From Candidatus Woesearchaeota archaeon (lineage in GTDB: Archaea > Nanobdellota > Nanobdellia > Woesearchaeales > GW2011-AR4), in NCBI GenBank assembly GCA_016181305.1, contig JACOZN010000010.1, positions 32,001 through 96,000 of the forward strand: a stretch of 64,000 bases of DNA, written 5' to 3'. Below the pieces are notes generated by a model. That model worked only from the letters and a program-made list of their open reading frames with translations, was not told the DNA's origin and searched no databases. Shown here piece after piece: positions 29,240 to 42,960 of the stretch. Each line of letters opens with the position of its first letter. The stretch's first letter is position 1. A program made the translations under genes and the position numbers.

Positions 29240-30298
29240 ATGAAGAGGATAAAGGTTGTTGTGTGGGACGGCGACAACACGCTCTGGAACGGGACTGTTT
29301 TCTATAAGGACAAGGAGAATGTAAGCCTGAAGCCCGGCACAAAAGAGGCTTTGAAGGAGCTTGACAAAAGAGGCATAAAAAGCACGATATGCAGCAAAAA
29401 TTATTATGAGGACGTTGAGTCGATTCTTAAAAAATTTGAGATTGCAAAATATTTCCAGCACCCCCAAATTGGGTGGGGGCTGAAATCAGACGCGATAAAG
29501 AATCTCGCAGGAACGTTCAATGCGCAGTTTGACGAGATGATCTTTGTCGACGATGACCCGTTCCAGCGCGCAGAGGTTGCATCGCAAATACCGGGCATAA
29601 ACATAGTGCCGATTGACGACCCGATAGACATACTCGGACTGGAGGGGGTCATGCCCCTGAATGCAAGCGAAGAGGACAGGAAAAGGGTGCAGCTACTGAA
29701 AGAGCAGAGGAACAGGGAGGAGGCTGAAAAAAATTTCAAAGGGGATTACAGGGATTTCCTGAAGCAGTGCAGCATGGTCATGACCGTTAGGCCGATAGAA
29801 GAGGAAGACTGGACAAGGGTAACCCAGTTGCTGAACAGGACAAACGAATTGAATGCGACGGCAAACAGGTACACCCTGGAGCAGCTAAAGGGGTCTTATG
29901 AAAAAAATAACGATGTCATAATGGTTGTTGAATTAAAGGACGTGTTTGGGGACTACGGAATCATTGCAGAGACTATACTGGAAAACAGGGATTACGGGTG
30001 GTTTGTAAGGGACTTGGCGGTTTCGTGTAGAACAATGGGCAGGGGCATTGGAAGCGCATTGGTTGTTGCTGTGCTGAACTATGCAAAGGAAAACGGCATC
30101 AAAAAAGTTGTCGGGAGGCTTGTCGAAACAGAGTCAAACTGGCGCATCAGGCCGCTTTACGAAAAGCGCAATTTCAGGAAAATCTCGTCTGACGACAAGG
30201 CAACATCGTATGAGTTTGACCTGTACAAAGACGAGATGCCCGAGTACCCCCCGTGGATGAAGGTTAATTTCCTTATGAAAGAGATTGCGAAGGAATAG
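29240..30298 (+). CDS. FkbH/BryA-family protein (HAD-IIIC phosphatase + GNAT-like domain)
   Basis: 'VVWDGDNTLW', 'CSKN', 'FVDDDPFQRAEV', 'QLLNRTNELN', 'DVFGDYG', 'VSCRTMGRGI' motifs. Confidence 0.85.
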   Translation: MKRIKVVVWDGDNTLWNGTVFYKDKENVSLKPGTKEALKELDKRGIKSTICSKNYYEDVESILKKFEIAKYFQHPQIGWGLKSDAIKNLAGTFNAQFDEMIFVDDDPFQRAEVASQIPGINIVPIDDPIDILGLEGVMPLNASEEDRKRVQLLKEQRNREEAEKNFKGDYRDFLKQCSMVMTVRPIEEEDWTRVTQLLNRTNELNATANRYTLEQLKGSYEKNNDVIMVVELKDVFGDYGIIAETILENRDYGWFVRDLAVSCRTMGRGIGSALVVAVLNYAKENGIKKVVGRLVETESNWRIRPLYEKRNFRKISSDDKATSYEFDLYKDEMPEYPPWMKVNFLMKEIAKE

Positions 30299-33058: not shown

Positions 33059-33850
33059 TCACTCTGGATTGTAGAATTTTCTTATGCTTTTATTCTTCAC
33101 CCATTTAATCGCTTTTTCATAATCCTCATTGGTGTCGAATTCCATCCAGCCGTGCTTGATTGGCACAGGATACACTTTCTGCCCTGAATTTATTATCAGC
33201 TGGAGCATGTCAGTCATGTAAAGCTTTTTGAATGACCTGGAGTTCATGAACCTTTCATCTTTGCCCCAGTAAATCCTTTTGCTTTTATTGTATAATTTTT
33301 TCAAAACAGCAATGCCTTTTTCTGAGAACTTTATTAAGCCGACGTACCTGAAATTTGCCTTGCTAAGGGGGCAGTCTGGAACGCCAACTTCGACAATGCT
33401 GCCGTCTTTTCCAATTACAAGGCTTTCTGTATCCTCCTGCCATTTTTTGCCAAGCCTTGCCTTCCAATAATCCAAGTAATCAATGTCAACTGCAACCCCT
33501 ATGTCAACAGGCGCTTCAATCACCTGCTTTGCGATTCTTTTTTCATACAATATGTCGCCATAGCACACAAGAATGCCGTCATTTAATTCTTTCCCGGCGC
33601 ACATAAGGCTGGCAACCATATTTGTGCTTGCGTAATTCGCATTGTGGCAATAGTCTGCATTCTTTATTTTTATTTTATCTTTCATGTAACCTGTTACAAT
33701 GACGATTTCATTAATGCCGCAGGCTCTCAAAGTTTCAACCTGCCTTTCAATCAGCGTTTTTCCGTTGAAATTGAGCATGCACTTAGGCAGAGTCTTTGTG
33801 TACTTGTCCAATCTTGTGCCCATGCCAGCTGCGAGGATTATGGATTTCAT
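33059..33850 (-). CDS. LicC-like NTP transferase; putative CTP:phosphoglutamine cytidylyltransferase (Cj1416-like)
   Basis: 'IILAAGMGTRL...PKCML', 'TNMVASL', 'YGDILYE', 'GWMEFDTNEDY' motifs, in an operon with Cj1417- and Cj1418-like genes. Confidence 0.78.
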   Translation of the reverse strand: MKSIILAAGMGTRLDKYTKTLPKCMLNFNGKTLIERQVETLRACGINEIVIVTGYMKDKIKIKNADYCHNANYASTNMVASLMCAGKELNDGILVCYGDILYEKRIAKQVIEAPVDIGVAVDIDYLDYWKARLGKKWQEDTESLVIGKDGSIVEVGVPDCPLSKANFRYVGLIKFSEKGIAVLKKLYNKSKRIYWGKDERFMNSRSFKKLYMTDMLQLIINSGQKVYPVPIKHGWMEFDTNEDYEKAIKWVKNKSIRKFYNPE

Positions 33851-33857
33851 CTGAAAA

Positions 33858-34547
33858 CTATTTTTCCCAAAACAATTTTCCTTCAACAAAAGCCTTGACC
33901 AACTTCTTATTTGTCTCCTTATCGCACCCTTCCCTTTCAGGATGCCAAAGAATGCCTGCAATCATGTGCTTTGGATGGTAAAACCCCTCTATAATGCCAT
34001 CATCGGAAACTGCAAAAGGCTTTAATTGCCTTGACAATGTGCTTTTGTCAACGCCCTGCTTGTGGTAGGAGTTCACAACAAATTTCTTACTGCCAAGAAA
34101 TTTTTCAGCTTTTTTGTCCATAATTTGAACATCATGCTTAACGCGCACATGGCTAATGCCTGTTTTTTCCTCAATGTCCTGAACAAGCTTTCCACCGAAA
34201 AAGACGTTGACAAACTGCCCTCCCCTGCATTCCCCAAGCAAAGGCAATTTTCTTTTCAAAGCAATTTCAATAATCTTTTTTTCAGTGGCGTCTCTTTCAT
34301 TTGAAAAATCCCCATTTTTGGGCTTGGCGCCGTAAAGCGCAGGGTTTATGGAATTGCCGCCGCTCAGGATTATTCCCTTTATGGGCATCTCCTTAAAATA
34401 TTTGTCCAGATTCCTGCTTACATTCGGCACAGGAACCAATGCAATGCCGAATTTCTCGTAATACCCGATGTAGTCATTTTCAAGGGCATCTCGGCAAGCG
34501 CCTTTGTCCATTTTCATGCTTCTTTGGGAGATCGCTATGAGCATCAT
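33858..34547 (-). CDS. Class I glutamine amidotransferase / peptidase C26; putative gamma-glutamyl-CDP-amidate hydrolase (Cj1417-like)
   Basis: 'IILSGGN', nucleophile 'GECRGGQ', 'VNSYH', 'WHPER' (Cys-His-Glu triad). Confidence 0.8.
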   Translation of the reverse strand: MMLIAISQRSMKMDKGACRDALENDYIGYYEKFGIALVPVPNVSRNLDKYFKEMPIKGIILSGGNSINPALYGAKPKNGDFSNERDATEKKIIEIALKRKLPLLGECRGGQFVNVFFGGKLVQDIEEKTGISHVRVKHDVQIMDKKAEKFLGSKKFVVNSYHKQGVDKSTLSRQLKPFAVSDDGIIEGFYHPKHMIAGILWHPEREGCDKETNKKLVKAFVEGKLFWEK

Positions 34548-37531
34548 GCACCCCTGATTGGCTCTATTTTATGCGCCTTGCAGTCAAGATGCACGGAATC
34601 GGCATTGACCAAATTGTCAAATATTACTCCGCAGCCGATTGCTGCAGGAATCCCGAATTCAGCGCACCTTATTGACATATGCGAAGCCACTCCGCCGTAT
34701 TTTGTGATTAAGCCTGCAATGTTTCTTGTAAATACCCAGTCATAGCCCGGGTCGCCGCTCTCGATAAGGACAACCTTGTTTTCTATGTCACCAACGCTTT
34801 TTCCGTCAAACTTGCTTAGGTTTACCAGCTGGGCATTTACATTCTTTGCAGTTATGTAGTTGGGCCTTGGTGCATAGTAAGTAACAACATCCAAGTCACT
34901 TTCCGAGAAAATTATAGGCGGCAGCTCAATTTTGTTATTCAGCTCCCTTTCTTTTCTCCTTGAAGTTATTGCCCCTTTCCATTTCCCGGTAAGCTCCTCC
35001 CTGCCAAGATTTGCATTGCTGAACAAGGCATCAGCATCCAGCATGGCAAGCTCCTGCCTTGTAAAGCCCATTTCCTCTCCGGCAAGCGCTATAAGCTCGA
35101 GCGCGTCGCTCAGGTTTTTTGTGAACTGGAATTTTGAGAGCTCTCTTGCCTCCAAAGCTGATTTTGTGAATTCAAGCAGCTGCATTGCATCAAATTTCAG
35201 GCCTTCCTGCTTCAGGATTTTTGTAATTCTCTCATAAGCATCATTGTCTACTATAAAAGAATCTGAATGATCTTCATGCAAATCAAAGCTTAGGGTTTTC
35301 AATAGCCCGGGGTTTGACTCGTACCTTGGGCTTGTAATGTCGTAAGAGCCAGGCCTTAAGTGGTAGTATTTCTTTACGAAGTCGTCATGATTCATCGCGC
35401 CTGAGCCAAGCAGCCTGAAGTCCCTGCTCATTTCCTTGGCGACAGTGCTTATGGAGTTCATGAAATTGTCATAGAAGACAGAGCCTATTATGCTTTTGCG
35501 CACAAGGCTTTTCAATATTATTTTGCCGACAAATGCCAGCCTTGCCAGCCTTGAAAACTCAACTGTGCCCTTTTTCCTGCAGTCGCCAAGCAGGAATTTT
35601 GCATTGCCAAGCATGGCTTCAACTGAATTGCCATGGGCTGAATTTTTCCTTATCCTTTCCCTGTTTGATTCCATTTCCTTGAGGCGCTTCAAATCCTCCC
35701 GGATTGATTCTTTGGAATGCACCACAAGGCTGTTGGTTAGCTTTATCAGTGCTTGCTTAAGCTCTTCAATATCCTCTCTTGCAAAGCCTGATTTTGAAAG
35801 CTCCTCTGACCTTTCGCCAAACGCCATGTCATAGCATGTAAACAAAACCTCAAACTCCACCTTGTCCTGCATATCCGGATTTTTCTCGAGCTTGTCGAGA
35901 TAAAAGTCAACGAGCTTCTCGCGCAGCTTCTGCGACAATGCAGCAGGCACGAATGAGTTAAAAGTGTTCCTAACGTCGATATAAGGCTTGTTGCCGAGCA
36001 AAACAACAAGCTTTGCCGGGTTTACATTATAATATCCCTGCGATGTCCTTGCCTCGTGCCATGCGCTGCCTGTTATGAGATAGTCATAAAGCGAATAGTC
36101 AAGATAATTCGGGTTGTCGCCTATTATTTCAGCAGGATTCCAGTCCGGCATGTCGGCAAGGATTGTCCTTTTCCCGGCAAGATGGGGCTTTCTGGCTGAA
36201 AGCTCGGCGAACCTAGCCTTTAGCAAGTCAATCCTGCTTTTGACTTCAGCATCGTCAGTCTCGTATTTGTTGCTTGTTGTCAATGGCCTTACCTGAAAGA
36301 TTATCACTTCGTTTTTGTTGTTTACTGCAAACTCTATGTCAAGCCCTATATTCGGGGCTATGCCTTCTATCTCTTTTACAGCTGCCAGCAGGTTTTGCAT
36401 GCTGCCAGGCAGCGAGCTTATTTCAGCAAACCTTGATATTTTCATTGTATTGCTCTCGACGCCTTTTGTGACTGTATCTGATTTTCCGGTTGAGCTGTCA
36501 TAATTGACTACATAATAAGGAGAATTTTTTTCCAAGGATCTTGTAAGTATCACGCCGCTCATTACAATATTCTCTGTCTGCTGCTGAATAAGGACTTGGT
36601 TGAATGAATTCTCGGATGACTTGTGCTTGTACGAGCTTATTACTTTCTTTACAGCAGCCTCGATCTCCTTTGAATCTGCTGAGCCAACATTAAGCTCTGT
36701 TGCAAAATAGCCTGCCATTGAGCTGTCAAGAGTATCTTCGTTGACAGCAGAGCTCCTGACTGCGATTTTGAAAGGCTGGAATTCCTCTTTTACTCTTTTG
36801 AGCAGTTCGTCTTTTTTGTTCTTCCAGTCTGAGACAGAAAACACATATGATTTTTCAATCCTTGATTTTTTAAGCAACGGCTTGAGCGCAGTCAATGTGT
36901 CTGCTTTTGTCGAGATTATAACCTTGTTGCCTTTTTGGTACTCCTTGTCAAGCTTGACTTCCCCCTTTATCAATGACTCAAAGTGGATAACATCCTTCAG
37001 CTTGTCCTTGCTTTCTATAAGCTCTGTTATGATTTTATATGTTGAAAGCCTTCCATAATATGGATGTTGTATGACTTTGCCGCCTATTTGGCTTATGTAT
37101 TCAGAGCCGTGCACATAGCTTAAGTCAGAGCCGTGGACAAGTGTTATTTCTGCATCAGGGAACTCCTCGTGTATCTTCTTGAGGTTCTCTGTTGGGTCTC
37201 TTGAGTCCTGCACCATAACCCTGTCAACGCAGTTGAGGCTTGAAATTATGGATTTTCTTTCCTGAAGATTGGCAATCGGCTTTGCCCTGTATTCCTCCAC
37301 AGCCTTGTCAGTCAGCACACCAACTATATTATAGTCAGAAATAGACTTGGCAAACTGGATTGAATGCAGATGCCCGTAATGAAACAAATCTGCTGCAACT
37401 CCGCTGTATGCTATTCTCTTTATAGATGCTCTTTTTACCTCTACTATATCGCCTTCCCTGATGCTTGAGCCTGTAGGAATTGTAATGCACAGCTGGTTAT
37501 TGGATTTGTTTTTCCATACTATCTTTTTCAT
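34544..37531 (-). CDS. AbrB-like + HxGH cytidylyltransferase + PEP-utiliser-family kinase fusion; putative L-glutamine kinase (Cj1418-like)
   Basis: N-terminal 'NNQLCITIP...IREGDIVEV', 'ADLFHYGH', ATP-grasp 'AVRSSAVNED' and 'LDIEFA...IFQVRP', central 'MPDWNPAEIIG', C-terminal phospho-His 'TKYGGVASHMSIRCAEFGIPAAIG'. No PEP/pyruvate-binding barrel. Confidence 0.85.
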   Translation of the reverse strand: MKKIVWKNKSNNQLCITIPTGSSIREGDIVEVKRASIKRIAYSGVAADLFHYGHLHSIQFAKSISDYNIVGVLTDKAVEEYRAKPIANLQERKSIISSLNCVDRVMVQDSRDPTENLKKIHEEFPDAEITLVHGSDLSYVHGSEYISQIGGKVIQHPYYGRLSTYKIITELIESKDKLKDVIHFESLIKGEVKLDKEYQKGNKVIISTKADTLTALKPLLKKSRIEKSYVFSVSDWKNKKDELLKRVKEEFQPFKIAVRSSAVNEDTLDSSMAGYFATELNVGSADSKEIEAAVKKVISSYKHKSSENSFNQVLIQQQTENIVMSGVILTRSLEKNSPYYVVNYDSSTGKSDTVTKGVESNTMKISRFAEISSLPGSMQNLLAAVKEIEGIAPNIGLDIEFAVNNKNEVIIFQVRPLTTSNKYETDDAEVKSRIDLLKARFAELSARKPHLAGKRTILADMPDWNPAEIIGDNPNYLDYSLYDYLITGSAWHEARTSQGYYNVNPAKLVVLLGNKPYIDVRNTFNSFVPAALSQKLREKLVDFYLDKLEKNPDMQDKVEFEVLFTCYDMAFGERSEELSKSGFAREDIEELKQALIKLTNSLVVHSKESIREDLKRLKEMESNRERIRKNSAHGNSVEAMLGNAKFLLGDCRKKGTVEFSRLARLAFVGKIILKSLVRKSIIGSVFYDNFMNSISTVAKEMSRDFRLLGSGAMNHDDFVKKYYHLRPGSYDITSPRYESNPGLLKTLSFDLHEDHSDSFIVDNDAYERITKILKQEGLKFDAMQLLEFTKSALEARELSKFQFTKNLSDALELIALAGEEMGFTRQELAMLDADALFSNANLGREELTGKWKGAITSRRKERELNNKIELPPIIFSESDLDVVTYYAPRPNYITAKNVNAQLVNLSKFDGKSVGDIENKVVLIESGDPGYDWVFTRNIAGLITKYGGVASHMSIRCAEFGIPAAIGCGVIFDNLVNADSVHLDCKAHKIEPIRGA

Positions 37532-37534
37532 ATT

Positions 37535-37570
37535 TCACTAGTGAGACTAGTAAAACTATTTAAAGATTAC
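37535..37570 (-). promoter_or_regulatory. TATA box plus palindromic ACTAGT-N3-ACTAGT candidate operator upstream of the phosphoramidate operon
   Basis: Minus-strand CTTTAAATA at 37565-37557. Perfect palindrome TCACTAGTGA at 37535-37544 and a second ACTAGT at 37546-37551, between the TATA box and the ATG. Confidence 0.45.
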
Positions 37571-37632
37571 TATTTATGATGTTATTTAATATATAGGTTA
37601 AAATATAGATGTTTAAGAATAGAATAGTTATG

Positions 37633-38922
37633 TTAAATTAAACCTTTATTTTTCAAGCTATTATAAACAATCCCAGCCACAACTTTGCTGCCATAGTTGG
37701 AGTAGTGCCCGCCGTACTTGTTGTCATCAGAGTAGATGCCATTCAGGTCCTTGCGGTTAATCAAGTTCTGTGTAAGGTCAATCACATTCAATTTTTTGCC
37801 TGCACTTTCAATGAAATCACCATAATACGGCTTTTTTCTTTTCCTGTTGAAAAGCAGGTCATCCTTCTGCGGCATCAGTAGGAAAACAGGAACGAATTTG
37901 TTTTTCCTGCCGTAATTTGAAAATTCCTCGAGCAGTTTTTCAAACAGCTTTACAGCGTATTTGTTTTTTTGGTAAAGCCTGCACCTCAGCTTCAGGTTAA
38001 CCAACATAATGACTTTCATCGGCGCTGGATAAGGCTGGAGCTTGCCTTCTTTCCTGAACAATTTGTCCCATAAAACCAAAAATATAAGCGGGATGTTCCT
38101 TAAGGGGCTGCCCAGAATCGATACAAAATACGGGAATCTTATCATCTCTTTCCTGAACTTGTTCTCGTAGAAGTAATCGTGCTTCCTTATCCGGGGCAGG
38201 TATTTTTTGTAAACAAGAAATTTTTCCTCGCTGTCTATGAAATTCTTGACTAATTTCAGCTTTCCGTTTTTCAGGATAAACCTCGGCTTGAACCCGAATA
38301 TGTTTCCAAATTCATTGTAGTGCTTCCACATGTCCATTATCCTGACGATTGTCGAGGGGACAACAGCCATTATCACTATTTTTGTCCTGTTTCTTGGATA
38401 TTCCCTTTTCAGCCTCAAAAATGCCTGATCAATGCCGTAATTGCCGACTCCAAAATTCAGTACATTGGTTTTTGTAAGCTCTGAAAGATGCCACTGGCAT
38501 GTCTCGTTGTCATTAACCTGCCTGCCGAATATGAAGGAATCGCCATAAAAGGATATTTTCTTTGGGAGCTTTTCATGCCCGGGGTTGCTTCTTGAGCCGT
38601 TTTTGCCAATATGGTATTTTGTTATCCCGAACTTGCCGATTTCATCTTTTTCAGTATTGGGCTTTCTTGCCCAGCCAATCTCAGGATCATAGCCGTGGCT
38701 TATGAACTTTTTGAGCCCCTCCCTGCTGAATTCAGGATGCTCGTCTTCGGGAGTTATAAGCCACTGGAAGCTTTTCTTCAGGCTCTTAATCAGGAAATAC
38801 GACAGGATTTCCAGAACTAAAAGCGCTATGATATAATAGGCAAAAAGCCTGTAATATTTTATGAAAAGAAATATGCCTGCAAAAACAAGGACAGTGCATG
38901 CAATAAGCCTTTTTGTTTCCAT
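37633..38922 (-). CDS. Membrane-anchored SGNH/GDSL-family protein
   Basis: Two N-terminal TM helices, 'FYGDSFIFG', 'NFGVGNYGIDQA' and C-terminal 'GGHYSNYG'. Confidence 0.75.
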   Translation of the reverse strand: METKRLIACTVLVFAGIFLFIKYYRLFAYYIIALLVLEILSYFLIKSLKKSFQWLITPEDEHPEFSREGLKKFISHGYDPEIGWARKPNTEKDEIGKFGITKYHIGKNGSRSNPGHEKLPKKISFYGDSFIFGRQVNDNETCQWHLSELTKTNVLNFGVGNYGIDQAFLRLKREYPRNRTKIVIMAVVPSTIVRIMDMWKHYNEFGNIFGFKPRFILKNGKLKLVKNFIDSEEKFLVYKKYLPRIRKHDYFYENKFRKEMIRFPYFVSILGSPLRNIPLIFLVLWDKLFRKEGKLQPYPAPMKVIMLVNLKLRCRLYQKNKYAVKLFEKLLEEFSNYGRKNKFVPVFLLMPQKDDLLFNRKRKKPYYGDFIESAGKKLNVIDLTQNLINRKDLNGIYSDDNKYGGHYSNYGSKVVAGIVYNSLKNKGLI

Positions 38923-38939: not shown

Positions 38940-40109
38940 TTATCTGTTTTTGTTTAAAAAATCAATTATGAACCTGGCGCCTGCGGCTGAAGAGCTGCCA
39001 AGGTTGAAAACGTGCTTTTTTCTTGCTTTTATAATTTCTTTCCTGTACTTAGCTTTTTCTTTTATCAGCTTTGCGGCTATTGAATCAATCTTGCCAACAT
39101 TATCCGGATGCAAAACAAACCCAATTTTGTTCCTTATTTTGATGTCGATAGGCTCTGTGCTGAATTTTCTGTATTCGGGGTTGTTTATTTTTATGGGAGT
39201 GTCTATGAACAGCACAGGCCTTTCTGTCCCGAAAGCATACTCATATACAACCCCTGACCAGTCGCTTATCATTATATCGGAGCTGTAAAAATTTTCAAGC
39301 GACGAGACATTCTCTTCTGCCATAAAATTTTTGAAATTCCTGAATTCATCATAAAGCGCGTCCAGAAATTCGGGATATTTTTTCCTTGTCATAGGGTGAG
39401 GCCTCAGAATCACTTCATAGTTTGACTCGAGCAGTTTTCTTACCAGTTTGCTGCCGCAGATGTCCAGCATGCTTGTCCTTTCCCCCCACGGGCCCCAGCC
39501 AGGCGCAACAAGTATCCTGGCCTTGAACTTTGTTTTCCTTTTTTTGCCTGCGCTTTTCCATTTTTTGTAGTCCCTATGTATTTTGTCCAGCCTGTAATAG
39601 CCGAATTTTACGATTTTTCTTTCAGGCAGCTTGTAAAGCTCCTCCTCATTCCTCAGCTCCCTGATATGATGGGGGCCGACTGCAAACATTATGTCATAGT
39701 AAAAAAGCCCTCCATGCCTTATTACATGGAAATAGCTGCCGATGTTGTGGAACAAATAAGCATGGCTGGCTCCCCTGACGGACTTTTTGATATGGAACTG
39801 GTTCAAGTCAGGCATTGTCATCAGCACAAGCTTTGAGTCCAGAAGCAGCATGAAAAATCCAAGCAAATGCCTTATGTAGAATGCATTAACGTTCTTTCTT
39901 TTGCTGTGCAGCATAGGGTCATTGCACTCTGATGTGACATAGCACAGCTTCATGTTGTGCCTGCCTGCAAGCTCGCCTATAATCCCCTCAAAAAAGGTGT
40001 AGTATGAGCTGTCTTCGGAATAAACCACAACATCCCTCTGGGCTTTGTCTAATTTGAAGAACCTGCGAAATTCCCTGAATTCCTTTGCAAACAGAGTCCA
40101 TTCTTTCAT
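38940..40109 (-). CDS. CDP-glycerol:glycerophosphotransferase (TagF/TagB)-like protein
   Basis: 'MTMPDL', 'YLFHNIGS', 'FGYYRLD', 'ILVAPGW', 'LRPHP', 'MISDWSGVVYEYAF..ERPVLFID' motifs. Confidence 0.8.
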   Translation of the reverse strand: MKEWTLFAKEFREFRRFFKLDKAQRDVVVYSEDSSYYTFFEGIIGELAGRHNMKLCYVTSECNDPMLHSKRKNVNAFYIRHLLGFFMLLLDSKLVLMTMPDLNQFHIKKSVRGASHAYLFHNIGSYFHVIRHGGLFYYDIMFAVGPHHIRELRNEEELYKLPERKIVKFGYYRLDKIHRDYKKWKSAGKKRKTKFKARILVAPGWGPWGERTSMLDICGSKLVRKLLESNYEVILRPHPMTRKKYPEFLDALYDEFRNFKNFMAEENVSSLENFYSSDIMISDWSGVVYEYAFGTERPVLFIDTPIKINNPEYRKFSTEPIDIKIRNKIGFVLHPDNVGKIDSIAAKLIKEKAKYRKEIIKARKKHVFNLGSSSAAGARFIIDFLNKNR

Positions 40110-40122
40110 AATAATTGGTTAA

Positions 40123-42006
40123 TTAATTTTGTTCGATTTTCTCGAGCTCTTTCTCCAAAAATCTTCTTTTTGTTATATTTACGTTATAAAGATTTAGTTT
40201 CTCCTGCGGGTCAGCATTGATATTAAACAGGGAGGAGTACATCCTGTTTTTCGGATCTTCCGGCTTTATCAGGAGAAGCTTCCACCCATCGTCAAAAATT
40301 GCCTGCTGCACGCTCTCATTCAGTTTTGGCCTTCCATAAAGCTCAGAAATCACGTAACTGCCGACAGGGCTTTTGTTAGTCTTAATCAGGGGGAGCAGGC
40401 TGGCGCTATCCACATTCCCAGGCGATTCGGTATTTGCCACGTCAAGCACTGTTGAAAATATGTCAATTGTGCTGACAGTCTCCTTTATCCTTTTTGGAGG
40501 CAGTTTGGCAGGGTAATAAATCAGCAAAGGAACGTGCACGTTCTCGTAGTATAAAGTATGGTGCATAAAGCCGCCGTGGTCGTAGAACTCCTCCCCGTGG
40601 TCTGCCGTGATTATTATCATTGTCTTGTCCTTCAAGCCCAGCTGGTCAAGCTTGCCAATCAGCTTTCCTATGCTGCTGTCAACAGAGTAGATTTCAGCAT
40701 CATAAAGCGCTTTTGCCATCTCTATTGTTGAGTTCGGAATCGGCAGGTACCTTTCAATTGCGTAAGAAGGCTTTGGCCTGTAAACAGTTGCAAGCTGTAT
40801 GTCTTTGTTTGTTTTCCAGACGTCATAAAGTGTTATCCTTTCATTGGAGAACATGCTCCTGTATTGCAGGCCGCGGTTGTAGGGATGATGGGGCTCGATG
40901 TAATGAACCCACAAAAAGAATTTGTTGTTTGAATTCTTCTCCAGAAACCTGAAAGCATCTCGGTTTATTTCCTCGGCTTTCCTCTCGCCGTCAGTCCTGA
41001 AAATGAAAGTGCGCATTCCGGGCATATAGTCAAGCAGCCTCTTCATGCTGAACTTATTGTAAGTCTGCGTGTATTCAAAAAAATCAAGCCTGTCCCTGTA
41101 TTCCATAAAGCCCTGTCCAGCCCCGTACTTTGACTTGATGTAAACAGCGCTAATCATGCCTGTTGTCACATAGCCCTTATCTTTCAGCAGTTCGCTGATA
41201 AGAAGCTCTTTTTCATTAATCACCGGATTCCTTAAGGTAGTATTATGGCGGTACTGGTATCTGCCGGTTAAAACAGACGCCATTGAAGTTTGGGTGTCCG
41301 GGCCGGGAGCTATGGCATTGTCAAATACAACAGAATGTTCCGCCAATTTGTTGAGATTTGGCGTGGTGTTCAGTTGATAGCCATAAAGAGAAAGGTGGTC
41401 AGCCCTTGTCGCGTCTATTGTTATCAGGATTATATTTGAGTAGTCTTTAAGCCTGCTGTCTGATTTGTAACCCGGGCTGTAATGCAGCATGTACACGTCA
41501 ATAAAAAGCGACACTGCAGCAAATACAAACATTGCAAAGATATAGTTTCCCAAAAACTTTTTTACTCTTGGCTTTTTCAGTTGCAGGAGAATCTGTGACA
41601 AAACATTCTTTCCTTTTAGGAAAATGGCAAAGCAGAATATCGCTGAAACTGCAACAACAAGCAGGCTGAGGCTGAACGATGCAGGCTCTATTATGCTCAA
41701 AGGGCTCAGCAGGAAGTTGTTTACAAGCACCAGGCCATAGAACATCAAAATAAACGATATTGTGCCAGCAACATAAGCATTCCTGGCTTGTTCCTGCTTT
41801 AGGGGTTTTCCGAACAACCAAACAAAAAATCCAAAAGCCAGAAAGAACAGCACAGACGCAGCAATCGATATAAACAATGCCTGGTAAAGCTCGAACCATT
41901 CGAAGCTCCATGAGAATATTCTGGCCAGTACATCAACTGTGCCGATTAAAGAGCCGGCCAGCAATCCTGCTGCGGCTGCGAGCTTTAAATGCCTTGTCAA
42001 TTTCAT
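40123..42006 (-). CDS. Membrane-bound sulfatase-fold (alkaline phosphatase superfamily) transferase, LtaS/EptA-like architecture
   Basis: About 5 N-terminal TM helices, 'NIILITIDATRADH', 'TTPNL', 'PDTQTSMASVLTG', 'WVHYIEPHHPY', 'ITADHGEEF' motifs. Confidence 0.82.
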   Translation of the reverse strand: MKLTRHLKLAAAAGLLAGSLIGTVDVLARIFSWSFEWFELYQALFISIAASVLFFLAFGFFVWLFGKPLKQEQARNAYVAGTISFILMFYGLVLVNNFLLSPLSIIEPASFSLSLLVVAVSAIFCFAIFLKGKNVLSQILLQLKKPRVKKFLGNYIFAMFVFAAVSLFIDVYMLHYSPGYKSDSRLKDYSNIILITIDATRADHLSLYGYQLNTTPNLNKLAEHSVVFDNAIAPGPDTQTSMASVLTGRYQYRHNTTLRNPVINEKELLISELLKDKGYVTTGMISAVYIKSKYGAGQGFMEYRDRLDFFEYTQTYNKFSMKRLLDYMPGMRTFIFRTDGERKAEEINRDAFRFLEKNSNNKFFLWVHYIEPHHPYNRGLQYRSMFSNERITLYDVWKTNKDIQLATVYRPKPSYAIERYLPIPNSTIEMAKALYDAEIYSVDSSIGKLIGKLDQLGLKDKTMIIITADHGEEFYDHGGFMHHTLYYENVHVPLLIYYPAKLPPKRIKETVSTIDIFSTVLDVANTESPGNVDSASLLPLIKTNKSPVGSYVISELYGRPKLNESVQQAIFDDGWKLLLIKPEDPKNRMYSSLFNINADPQEKLNLYNVNITKRRFLEKELEKIEQN

Positions 42007-42108: not shown

Positions 42109-42960
42109 TTACCTTTCCAGAAGTATGTTGGCATACCTGCTTCCCTGGCATAATCTAATCAGCGAGGAGCTGCCAATCGGCTCTGTCCGCTTCTTTTTCT
42201 CGTTTATCAGCCTGATTTTGAATCCATGGCTTTCCAGCCTGCTTAAGAACTCCTGAGGGGAATCGCCGCATTTCATCAAGCCCTTTGGATAAAACTCGCA
42301 CACCAGCCTTATGACTTTACTTGACTCCAGCAATTTGGCCATGCCCTTCACTGCCAGAAACTCGGCGCCTTCAGCGTCAATCTTGACAAAATCTGGCTTT
42401 GCCTTGTTTCTGACGAAATTGTCTATCGTTATTGAATCCACTTCTATGGGCTTGCTTCCCGCGCCAAGATCTGACATGCTGTGGTCTCCCTTATAGGCTT
42501 CTGACACAAAAAATTTCACTTTTCCGGATTTGTCAGAAACGGCTTTTTTGACTGCTCTGACGTTTTTGCAGCTGTTTGCTTTTATGTTTTTTACGAGCAG
42601 CCTGTAGTTCTCAGGCTCCGGCTCGAATGCGTAAACCACCCCATTTTTGCCAACCAAATCTGAGAAAATTAAAGTGTAATAGCCTATGTTTGCCCCTATA
42701 TCATAAACAACCATTCCCTTTCTGACAATCCTGCCCAGCAGCTTTGCCTCAAAAGCCTCAAGCGCAGAAAACTTCCACAGCAGCAGCGCGAAAATCCTGT
42801 CAAGCGTGCCTGCATACATTTTGTGCATGCCGACTTTTACCATGATGTCTTTTCCAGGGCTAAAATGCCTGTTGACAAAACTGGCTATTTTTTTAGCCAT
42901 GCCACTGGAAGCAAGGCTCACAATAAATCCCGAAGCGCCATTCAGAACATTGAAGCCCAT
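42109..42960 (-). CDS. FkbM-family methyltransferase
   Basis: 'YDIGANIGYY', 'AFEPEP', 'KIDAEGAE' motifs. Confidence 0.9.
   Translation of the reverse strand: MGFNVLNGASGFIVSLASSGMAKKIASFVNRHFSPGKDIMVKVGMHKMYAGTLDRIFALLLWKFSALEAFEAKLLGRIVRKGMVVYDIGANIGYYTLIFSDLVGKNGVVYAFEPEPENYRLLVKNIKANSCKNVRAVKKAVSDKSGKVKFFVSEAYKGDHSMSDLGAGSKPIEVDSITIDNFVRNKAKPDFVKIDAEGAEFLAVKGMAKLLESSKVIRLVCEFYPKGLMKCGDSPQEFLSRLESHGFKIRLINEKKKRTEPIGSSSLIRLCQGSRYANILLER

Follow-up and report, generated by a model that had tools for sequence, protein, structure and literature searches.

Chemical proof of phosphoramidate on glycans is known only for Campylobacter, in which the modification affects interactions with phage and serum (PMC3907429). 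In Campylobacter jejuni, the donor for O-methyl phosphoramidate (MeOPN) is made by Cj1418, an L-glutamine kinase, Cj1416, a phosphoglutamine cytidylyltransferase, Cj1417, a hydrolase of gamma-glutamyl-CDP-amidate (CDP, cytidine diphosphate), and Cj1415, a CDP-amidate 3'-kinase (PMC11800397, PMC6429109). A MeOPN-like cluster has also been proposed for an archaeal element, the Borg elements of Methanoperedens (bioRxiv 10.1101/2024.11.05.622173). The window considered here is a 64,000-nucleotide stretch (C15:32001-96000 of the assembly) from a Candidatus Woesearchaeota archaeon, and positions 33059 to 37531 hold a three-gene operon related to these systems. This operon is probably a phosphoramidate-donor module of the Campylobacter type, in a variant form whose glutamine-kinase-type protein is fused to an HxGH-type cytidylyltransferase and whose cytidine diphosphoramidate would be used directly, with release of cytidine monophosphate (CMP). 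The pathway itself is known from C. jejuni; what appears new from sequence is the fusion form, mostly free of the 3'-kinase and paired with CDP-type phosphotransferases in DPANN archaea. In the literature searched, there was no description of the HxGH fusion or of a 3'-kinase-free form, and no link to DPANN archaea.

Like the C. jejuni system, the locus combines the same three enzyme families in one tightly coupled operon within a surface-glycan locus, with a methyltransferase nearby. In contrast to C. jejuni, the genome is that of a DPANN-type archaeon and lacks a 3'-kinase resembling adenosine 5'-phosphosulfate (APS) kinase, the glutamine-kinase-type protein carries an HxGH domain and a 37-residue N-terminal extension, and the methyltransferase is of the FkbM type rather than class I. 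The Borg cluster is likewise archaeal-associated and includes a predicted glutamine kinase, a hydrolase and cytidylyltransferases in a glycoconjugate region. It differs in that the assignment is structure-based and one cytidylyltransferase is fused to phosphoenolpyruvate (PEP) mutase; the passages of the preprint consulted mention neither a fusion of the glutamine kinase nor the lack of a 3'-kinase. The features of the operon and of the DNA directly ahead of it are as follows.

33059-33850, minus strand: LicC-like nucleotidyltransferase, 263 aa; candidate cytidine triphosphate (CTP):phosphoglutamine cytidylyltransferase
33858-34547, minus strand: C26/class I amidotransferase-type hydrolase; candidate gamma-glutamyl-CDP-amidate hydrolase with Cys107, His202 and Glu204
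34544-36931, minus strand: glutamine-kinase-type domain, residues 201-995 of 995 aa, comprising an ATP-grasp, a family-specific middle region and a swivel phospho-His domain (His951)
36932-37420, minus strand: fused HxGH-type cytidylyltransferase domain, residues 38-200, with HYGH at 51-54 and an RLST.K motif
37421-37531, minus strand: conserved N-terminal extension of 37 residues, predicted to form short beta-strands
37532-37632, minus strand: probable promoter spacer of 101 bp, AT-rich with TATA-like runs, 5' of the fusion gene, from sequence inspection

The three minus-strand genes span 34544-37531 (995 aa), 33858-34547 (229 aa) and 33059-33850 (263 aa). The kinase and hydrolase genes share a 4-bp overlap, and the junction between the hydrolase and LicC-like genes reads TAG, 7 nt (TTTTCAG) and an ATG at 33850. 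The third gene is listed as an open reading frame of 33059-33961; because this ATG follows the 7-nt spacer, its start is placed at 33850, and the resulting 263-aa product matches an identical database protein of equal length. The AT-rich spacer ahead of the fusion gene probably holds a promoter, which may make the trio a transcription unit of its own. An earlier note on this DNA, made from the letters and their open reading frames, gave coordinates, a 4-bp overlap and a 7-bp gap that prove exact against the open reading frame list and the junction sequence. Its description of three cassette genes in a coupled operon with intact motifs agrees with the domain assignments, the motif conservation and the recurring gene order, and its placement of the host among the archaea is also sound. 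The contig is archaeal, since it carries the gene for the TATA-binding protein and a search for sigma-70 as a domain-assignment marker was negative; a search of the assembly (1.07 Mb, 22 contigs, completeness score 78%) for a 16S rRNA gene found none, and the domain was assigned through these two markers. Close homologues come from Woesearchaeota and Nanoarchaeota bins. The same note reported the kinase homologue but overlooked that this 995-aa protein is a fusion, as residues 38-200 are a second cytidylyltransferase (PF01467).

The kinase part of the fusion protein is recognized over its entire length. Residues 201-992 match the NCBIfam model NF004508/PRK05849 at 857 bits (cut-off 501) across model positions 6-788 of 789, and Pfam places PF01326 (PPDK_N) and PF00391 (PEP-utilizers swivel domain) within them. 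In alignments with archaeal and bacterial members, the swivel His951 (GGVASHMSIRC) and the ATP-grasp block RSS..ED..S.AG are invariant, and the family-specific middle region is strongly conserved between the two domains of life. Identity to bacterial cassette kinases is 30-35% over 95-99% of the length. We take NF004508/PRK05849 to include Cj1418, the sole support being the name 'glutamine kinase', based on KEGG Orthology (KO), that JGI gives to relatives of 54-64% identity.

The fused domain at residues 38-200 matches PF01467 with E = 3e-10, and its top sequence match in the PDB is the cytidylyltransferase (CyTase) domain of Fom1 (5x3d), to which it is 30% identical. An AlphaFold model of the domain (predicted local distance difference test score, pLDDT, 84.6) retrieved 5x3d as the best hit of a fold search (E = 2.6e-10; TM score 0.82 on the target), followed by HldC, TagD and ECT, all of which share the fold and the HxGH motif. 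All of 17 relatives share H51, G53, H54 and S163 and also keep the RLST.K motif. Given the conservation of HYGH and RLST.K, the domain looks active, and it is probably a working cytidylyltransferase as predicted. Fom1 resembles the operon protein further in that its cytidylyltransferase is joined in one chain with the enzyme that opens a pathway to an unusual phosphorus compound, although the partner is PEP mutase there and a glutamine-kinase-type enzyme here. Because the kinase gene carries the extra HxGH domain, the module has two nucleotidyltransferases, and the variant is defined by this fusion, not by loss of the 3'-kinase alone. Possible roles of the HxGH cytidylyltransferase are to channel phosphoglutamine, to supply a second CDP donor or to make up in some other way for the absent 3'-kinase. 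A stand-alone HxGH cytidylyltransferase paralogue of 163 aa (61 bits on a hidden Markov model (HMM) of the fused domain) is encoded at C15:16514-17005, upstream of the window. In 6/8 related genomes, the 37 N-terminal residues show 57-76% identity. A Pfam search with them found no family at E < 0.07, and an AbrB-like DNA-binding domain was rejected because it lacks Pfam support. Triple-fusion relatives have an APS-kinase-like domain N-terminal to the cytidylyltransferase domain; in two such proteins (P0066 and P0100), PF01583 stands at the N-terminus and the extension is missing.

The two smaller proteins also resemble their bacterial cassette counterparts. The hydrolase scores 131 bits on PF07722 (Peptidase_C26/GATase), and its best match among 18,950 NCBIfam models is NF045546 at 104 bits, with PuuD second at 57 bits. 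Among 60 cassette homologues, 98-100% share its C107, H202 and E204. The LicC-like protein belongs to PF12804 (NTP_transf_3), and its top PDB matches are LicC (1jyk) and PntC (6pd1); an NCBIfam search with it gave no specific model match. Its nucleotide loop is intact (G9, G11, R13, P22 and K23), and the hydrolase triad together with the G9-G11-R13...K23 loop is kept in 93-100% of cassette homologues. HMMs were also built solely from bacterial cassettes that contain the 3'-kinase, where the LicC-like gene is the only transferase. On these models, the LicC-like protein reaches 219 bits against 51 for the next paralogue in the genome, and the hydrolase 144 bits against 35. These scores clearly mark the LicC-like gene as orthologous to the only transferase of the bacterial cassettes; relatives of 59-60% identity bear the KO-based JGI name 'L-glutamine-phosphate cytidylyltransferase'.

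Three models were used to look for a 3'-kinase across the 1.07-Mb assembly. PF01583 matches best at 20.4 bits, to CoaE, and revealed no APS-kinase-like gene. With NF004041, an APS-kinase subfamily model on which the kinase of the Smac51 cassette scores 143 bits, nothing exceeded 16 bits. A cassette-specific HMM, made from the APS-kinase-like domains of a first census (83 hits), reached at most 18.5 bits over 50 positions, in P-loop fragments only. The window, which extends about 30 kb to each side of the operon, likewise yielded no APS-kinase-like gene. The earlier note's remark that the window lacks such a gene is thus confirmed with all three models, and the genome-wide search for a Cj1415-type homologue that it proposed returned none. 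The CoaE gene (dephospho-CoA kinase) stands next to a CoaD (PPAT) gene, both of bacterial type, beside a tyrosine recombinase at C5:53058-56411 (locus positions 782-1860).

Related genomes give the same picture. The glutamine-kinase family occurs in 10 genomes of a 301-genome sample of the phylum, and the kinase, hydrolase and LicC-like genes stand in the same order in 8/8 related archaeal genomes. Three of these relatives (G035, G051 and G230; 100, 98 and 93% complete) carry the operon, and no convincing APS-kinase-like gene was found in them genome-wide. Because such near-complete, operon-bearing genomes also have none, the absence appears to be a recurrent biological state rather than an assembly gap; as judged from these searches, the 3'-kinase is absent and not merely unassembled. 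Among the other relatives searched, one (G202) has only a weak 23-bit APS-kinase match genome-wide, three (G084, G111 and G127) encode ordinary APS kinases, and one (G215) is alone in having a kinase of the cassette type. The APS kinases near the operons of G111, fused to CysQ, and of G127, which adjoins a gene for a fusion of pyruvate kinase, PUA and ATP-sulfurylase domains (PK-PUA-ATP-sulfurylase), were considered as Cj1415-type enzymes and rejected, as they group with the ordinary APS kinases beside sulfotransferases.

A census places the operon within a much larger family. In a scan of a genome collection, the glutamine-kinase family was present in at least 587 prokaryote species, of which the best 80 matches were kept, all bacterial and none from Campylobacter; a metagenome scan added 80 archaeal-type loci. 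Nearly all of the best 80 bacterial matches have an APS-kinase-like domain (as an N-terminal fusion or an adjacent gene), a class I methyltransferase (about 80% of bacterial cassettes), a LicC-like protein and the hydrolase, and the kinase, hydrolase and LicC-like trio is also present on bacterial plasmids. The counts below are restricted to loci with at least 4 kb of flank on both sides and a reach of 10 kb to either side; because the loci are phylogenetically related, they are descriptive and overstate independence.

C26 hydrolase near the cassette: HxGH-fused loci 36/36; unfused or APS-kinase-fused loci 58/66
LicC-like gene near the cassette: HxGH-fused 36/36; unfused or APS-kinase-fused 63/66
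Cassette-type 3'-kinase: HxGH-fused 7/36, two of them triple fusions of APS kinase, cytidylyltransferase and glutamine-kinase-type domains; unfused or APS-kinase-fused 61/66
TagF-like or CDP-alcohol phosphotransferase: HxGH-fused 28/36; unfused or APS-kinase-fused 10/66 (8/61 of those with a 3'-kinase)
SGNH-like 429-aa protein: HxGH-fused 16/36; unfused or APS-kinase-fused 1/66
HIT-domain protein: HxGH-fused 12/36; unfused or APS-kinase-fused 0/66

The trio keeps its order in 36/36 fused loci, which, with the 8/8 related genomes, shows that the arrangement is not due to chance. In a tree of the glutamine-kinase-type domain, every HxGH fusion falls into one clade, and the unfused sister group mostly has the 3'-kinase; on this single tree, the five-part bacterial cassette (APS-kinase-like domain, methyltransferase, kinase, LicC-like protein and hydrolase) grades into the archaeal form. 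Loss of the 3'-kinase is the usual state of the HxGH-fusion clade (29/36 loci). The earlier note was right that this archaeon lacks the 3'-kinase step, but the lack is not peculiar to it. A tree of APS-kinase domains separates the cassette type from ordinary APS kinases, which are fused to CysQ or lie beside a PK-PUA-ATP-sulfurylase gene, near sulfotransferases.

Several bacterial cassettes are instructive for comparison. On plasmid AZO_p6 of Azospirillum lipoferum 4B, a cassette with an APS-kinase-like component has its kinase (932 bits on NF004508), hydrolase (107 bits on NF045546) and LicC-like gene arranged as in the archaeal operon. Cassettes of this kind, among them the APS-kinase::kinase fusions of Acidobacteriota, differ from the operon in having the APS-kinase-like domain at the N-terminus of the kinase or adjacent to it (61/66), almost always a class I methyltransferase, and frequently sulfotransferase-like genes. 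Another bacterial parallel is plasmid pYa108 of Vibrio alfacsensis (NZ_AP024168.1), which lacks the 3'-kinase, fuses an N-terminal nucleotidyltransferase-like domain to the glutamine-kinase-type protein, and continues with the hydrolase, the LicC-like gene and a TagF-like gene of the CDP-glycerol glycerophosphotransferase family. Unlike the archaeal fusion, its extra domain is LicC-like with a degenerate loop, not HxGH, and its host is a bacterium. Bacteria acquired such N-terminal LicC-like fusions independently, as seen on plasmids of V. alfacsensis and Pseudohalocynthiibacter, and both loci are free of the 3'-kinase. In these fused domains (L050:7443-8200 and L053:7269-8100), the GxGxR...PK loop is missing or degenerate, which suggests that they are non-catalytic. 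Because these LicC-like domains have no G-loop, it is less likely that every N-terminal transferase fusion replaces the 3'-kinase catalytically.

Upstream of the operon, a string of minus-strand genes includes a candidate for the acceptor side of the pathway.

37633-38922, minus strand: SGNH-like protein of 429 aa, assigned by motif only (GDS...GxN...H); no Pfam match
38940-40109, minus strand: TagF-like CDP-glycerol-type phosphotransferase (PF04464, E = 3e-13); candidate acceptor-side enzyme for a CDP-linked donor
40123-42006, minus strand: sulfatase/LtaS-fold protein of 627 aa (PF00884, 180 bits), same gene string
42109-42960, minus strand: FkbM-type methyltransferase (PF05050, 78 bits), same gene string

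The TagF-like gene lies 1.4 kb upstream of the operon; a TagF-like nature of the MeOPN transferase itself was considered and is not shown in PMC8949473. A CDP-alcohol phosphotransferase of the cassette-linked type is encoded at C15:96665-97570, about 27 kb from the operon and just past the end of the window. The 429-aa protein, in which G127-D128-S129, G160-N161 and H406 are invariant, is a strong candidate for a pathway component because it occurs near 16/36 fused but only 1/66 other cassettes. A relationship of this protein to two hypothetical proteins (413 aa each) from the cassette of the Smac51 plasmid was considered and rejected (hhalign probability below 1%). A sulfatase/LtaS-fold homologue is found near 12/36 fused loci. 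No class I methyltransferase of the cassette type adjoins the operon, and the FkbM-type enzyme is a possible source of an O-methyl group. The surrounding island encodes epimerases, a DegT aminotransferase, methyltransferases, GT1 and GT2 glycosyltransferases, a Wzx-like flippase and PMT_2 proteins; in this context, the earlier note's proposal that the surface glycan carries phosphoramidate is a reasonable one.

Family membership and conserved gene order together suggest the following route. Glutamine would be N-phosphorylated via phospho-His951, and the resulting phosphoglutamine would receive CMP from CTP through a cytidylyltransferase. The LicC-like orthologue is the predicted enzyme for this second step, and the fused HxGH domain may contribute to it or perform it instead. 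The C26 hydrolase would then strip off glutamate to leave cytidine diphosphoramidate. Up to this point, the route agrees with the Campylobacter scheme as PMC11800397 and PMC6429109 summarize it. Without 3'-phosphorylation, this CDP-linked donor would go straight to a CMP-releasing phosphotransferase, most likely the TagF-like enzyme, which would attach the phosphoramidate to a glycan of the cell envelope. Direct use of the donor is suggested by how regularly CMP-releasing phosphotransferases accompany the fused cassettes, although such use by the TagF-like enzyme is the weakest link of the scheme.

The absence of the 3'-kinase might also be only apparent. The canonical pathway would then run with an unrecognized 3'-kinase, either CoaE, which phosphorylates a ribose 3'-OH and is the best weak APS-kinase-like match (on contig C5), or the product of a gene in the unassembled part of a genome with a completeness score of 78%. 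The 7/36 fused loci that keep a cassette-type kinase, two as triple fusions, are in line with this explanation, as the downstream enzymes of the clade may still use a 3'-phosphorylated donor. However, in loci that have the 3'-kinase, it is fused or at most about 10 kb away (within the reach of the census), none lies within about 30 kb on each side in the window, and the operon-bearing G035, G051 and G230 have no APS-kinase-like gene that could be found genome-wide, which makes a hidden 3'-kinase unlikely. A module that makes no phosphoramidate at all, in which the PRK05849-type enzyme phosphorylates some other substrate for a different CDP-activated head group, is the least probable of the explanations considered, at a small fraction of the likelihood of a phosphoramidate module. 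No member of the family other than Cj1418 is known to have been characterized (reviews PMC11800397, PMC6429109), the archaeal proteins are just 30-35% identical to the bacterial cassette kinases, and the hydrolase falls under its equivalog cut-off. Yet the gamma-glutamyl-type C26 hydrolase is co-conserved in 36/36 fused loci, a pattern to be expected only with glutamine as the carrier; the gradation of the full bacterial cassette into the archaeal form on one tree and the highly conserved middle region of the kinase across domains of life also argue against a change of substrate.

The division of labour between the two transferases admits another, doubtful, explanation. In it, the HxGH domain rather than the LicC-like protein would cytidylylate phosphoglutamine channelled from the kinase domain, and the two transferases would make CDP-amidate and a second donor, either a CDP-alcohol such as CDP-glycerol or a phosphonate-CMP. 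TagF-like or CDP-alcohol enzymes would use the second donor, and the product would be a phosphodiester head group with the phosphorus-nitrogen (P-N) group attached to it or alongside it. The HxGH catalytic motifs are intact, the nearest solved relatives (Fom1 CyTase, TagD and ECT) use small phospho- or phosphono-alcohols, the fusion correlates with CMP-releasing phosphotransferases (28/36 against 8/61), and the triple fusions join three pathway activities in one chain, all of which fit two donors. Set against this are the retention of the LicC-like gene, clearly orthologous to the sole bacterial transferase, in 36/36 fused loci, the lack of any glycerol-3-phosphate or phosphonate supply gene identified in the operon, and the degenerate nucleotide loops of the N-terminal LicC-like domains in Vibrio and Pseudohalocynthiibacter, which indicate that an N-terminal transferase-like domain need not be catalytic.

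The preferred reading, a Campylobacter-type donor module with direct use of cytidine diphosphoramidate, has evidence weighing against it as well. The scheme assigns no task to the second, apparently active, cytidylyltransferase. A TagF-like partner alone does not imply a donor made without the 3'-kinase, because eight bacterial cassettes that contain this kinase have such a partner. The correspondence to Cj1416-Cj1418 is drawn from NCBIfam models, KO names and cassette architecture, the census loci are related by descent, and the assembly is incomplete. Finally, the hydrolase scores 104 bits on NF045546 against an equivalog cut-off of 250; this cut-off appears narrow, since hydrolases of bacterial cassettes beside APS-kinase-like genes reach only 75-107 bits.

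Other genes accompany the fused cassettes. The commonest companion is a small CDP-alcohol phosphatidyltransferase, present in 21/36 loci (e.g., L159:19020-19748), and a plasmid cassette of Agrobacterium vitis likewise has one at its end. Nucleoside phosphoramidates are substrates of HIT/Hint hydrolases; the HIT-domain protein of the 12/36 fused cassettes (148 aa; e.g., L024:12021-12467) is encoded inside or beside them, and no HIT-domain gene adjoins the operon of this window. Islands in related archaea encode a fusion of a pyruvate-kinase barrel, PUA and ATP-sulfurylase (748 aa; L027:10630-12876) and a fusion of APS kinase with a CysQ-type phosphatase (440 aa; L190:7415-8737), both beside sulfotransferase-like genes; these are apparently a glycan-sulfation set adjoining the phosphoramidate cassette. 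In G230, a gene homologous to the sulfurylase fusion lies close to the cassette, yet no APS kinase was found in this genome. Within the glycan island of the window, a two-domain gene at 29240-30298 (plus strand) combines a HAD phosphatase and a GNAT acetyltransferase according to Pfam. Three B12-binding radical SAM genes lie at C15:116119-120715, about 50 kb from the operon, and homologues occur within 10 kb of 9/36 fused cassettes.

The donor module spans at least 587 prokaryote species, and the second cytidylyltransferase of the archaeal form poses a concrete question of enzymology. If the proposed chemistry holds, the archaeal form would offer a testable alternative to a 3'-phosphorylated donor resembling 3'-phosphoadenosine 5'-phosphosulfate (PAPS), and it would point to P-N marking of the surface of episymbiotic archaea, which contact their hosts through their envelopes. 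A broader proposal, which we put forward only tentatively, is that the HxGH fusion marks a distinct form of phosphoramidate transfer, independent of the 3'-kinase and common in DPANN archaea. Here, a second nucleotidyl transfer would take the functional place of 3'-phosphorylation, and P-N groups would be added to the envelope or to lipids by CMP-releasing enzymes, namely TagF-like or CDP-alcohol phosphotransferases, which the SGNH-like and HIT proteins may assist. If this is true, P-N-decorated surfaces would be a regular trait of ultra-small archaea and not a speciality of Campylobacter.

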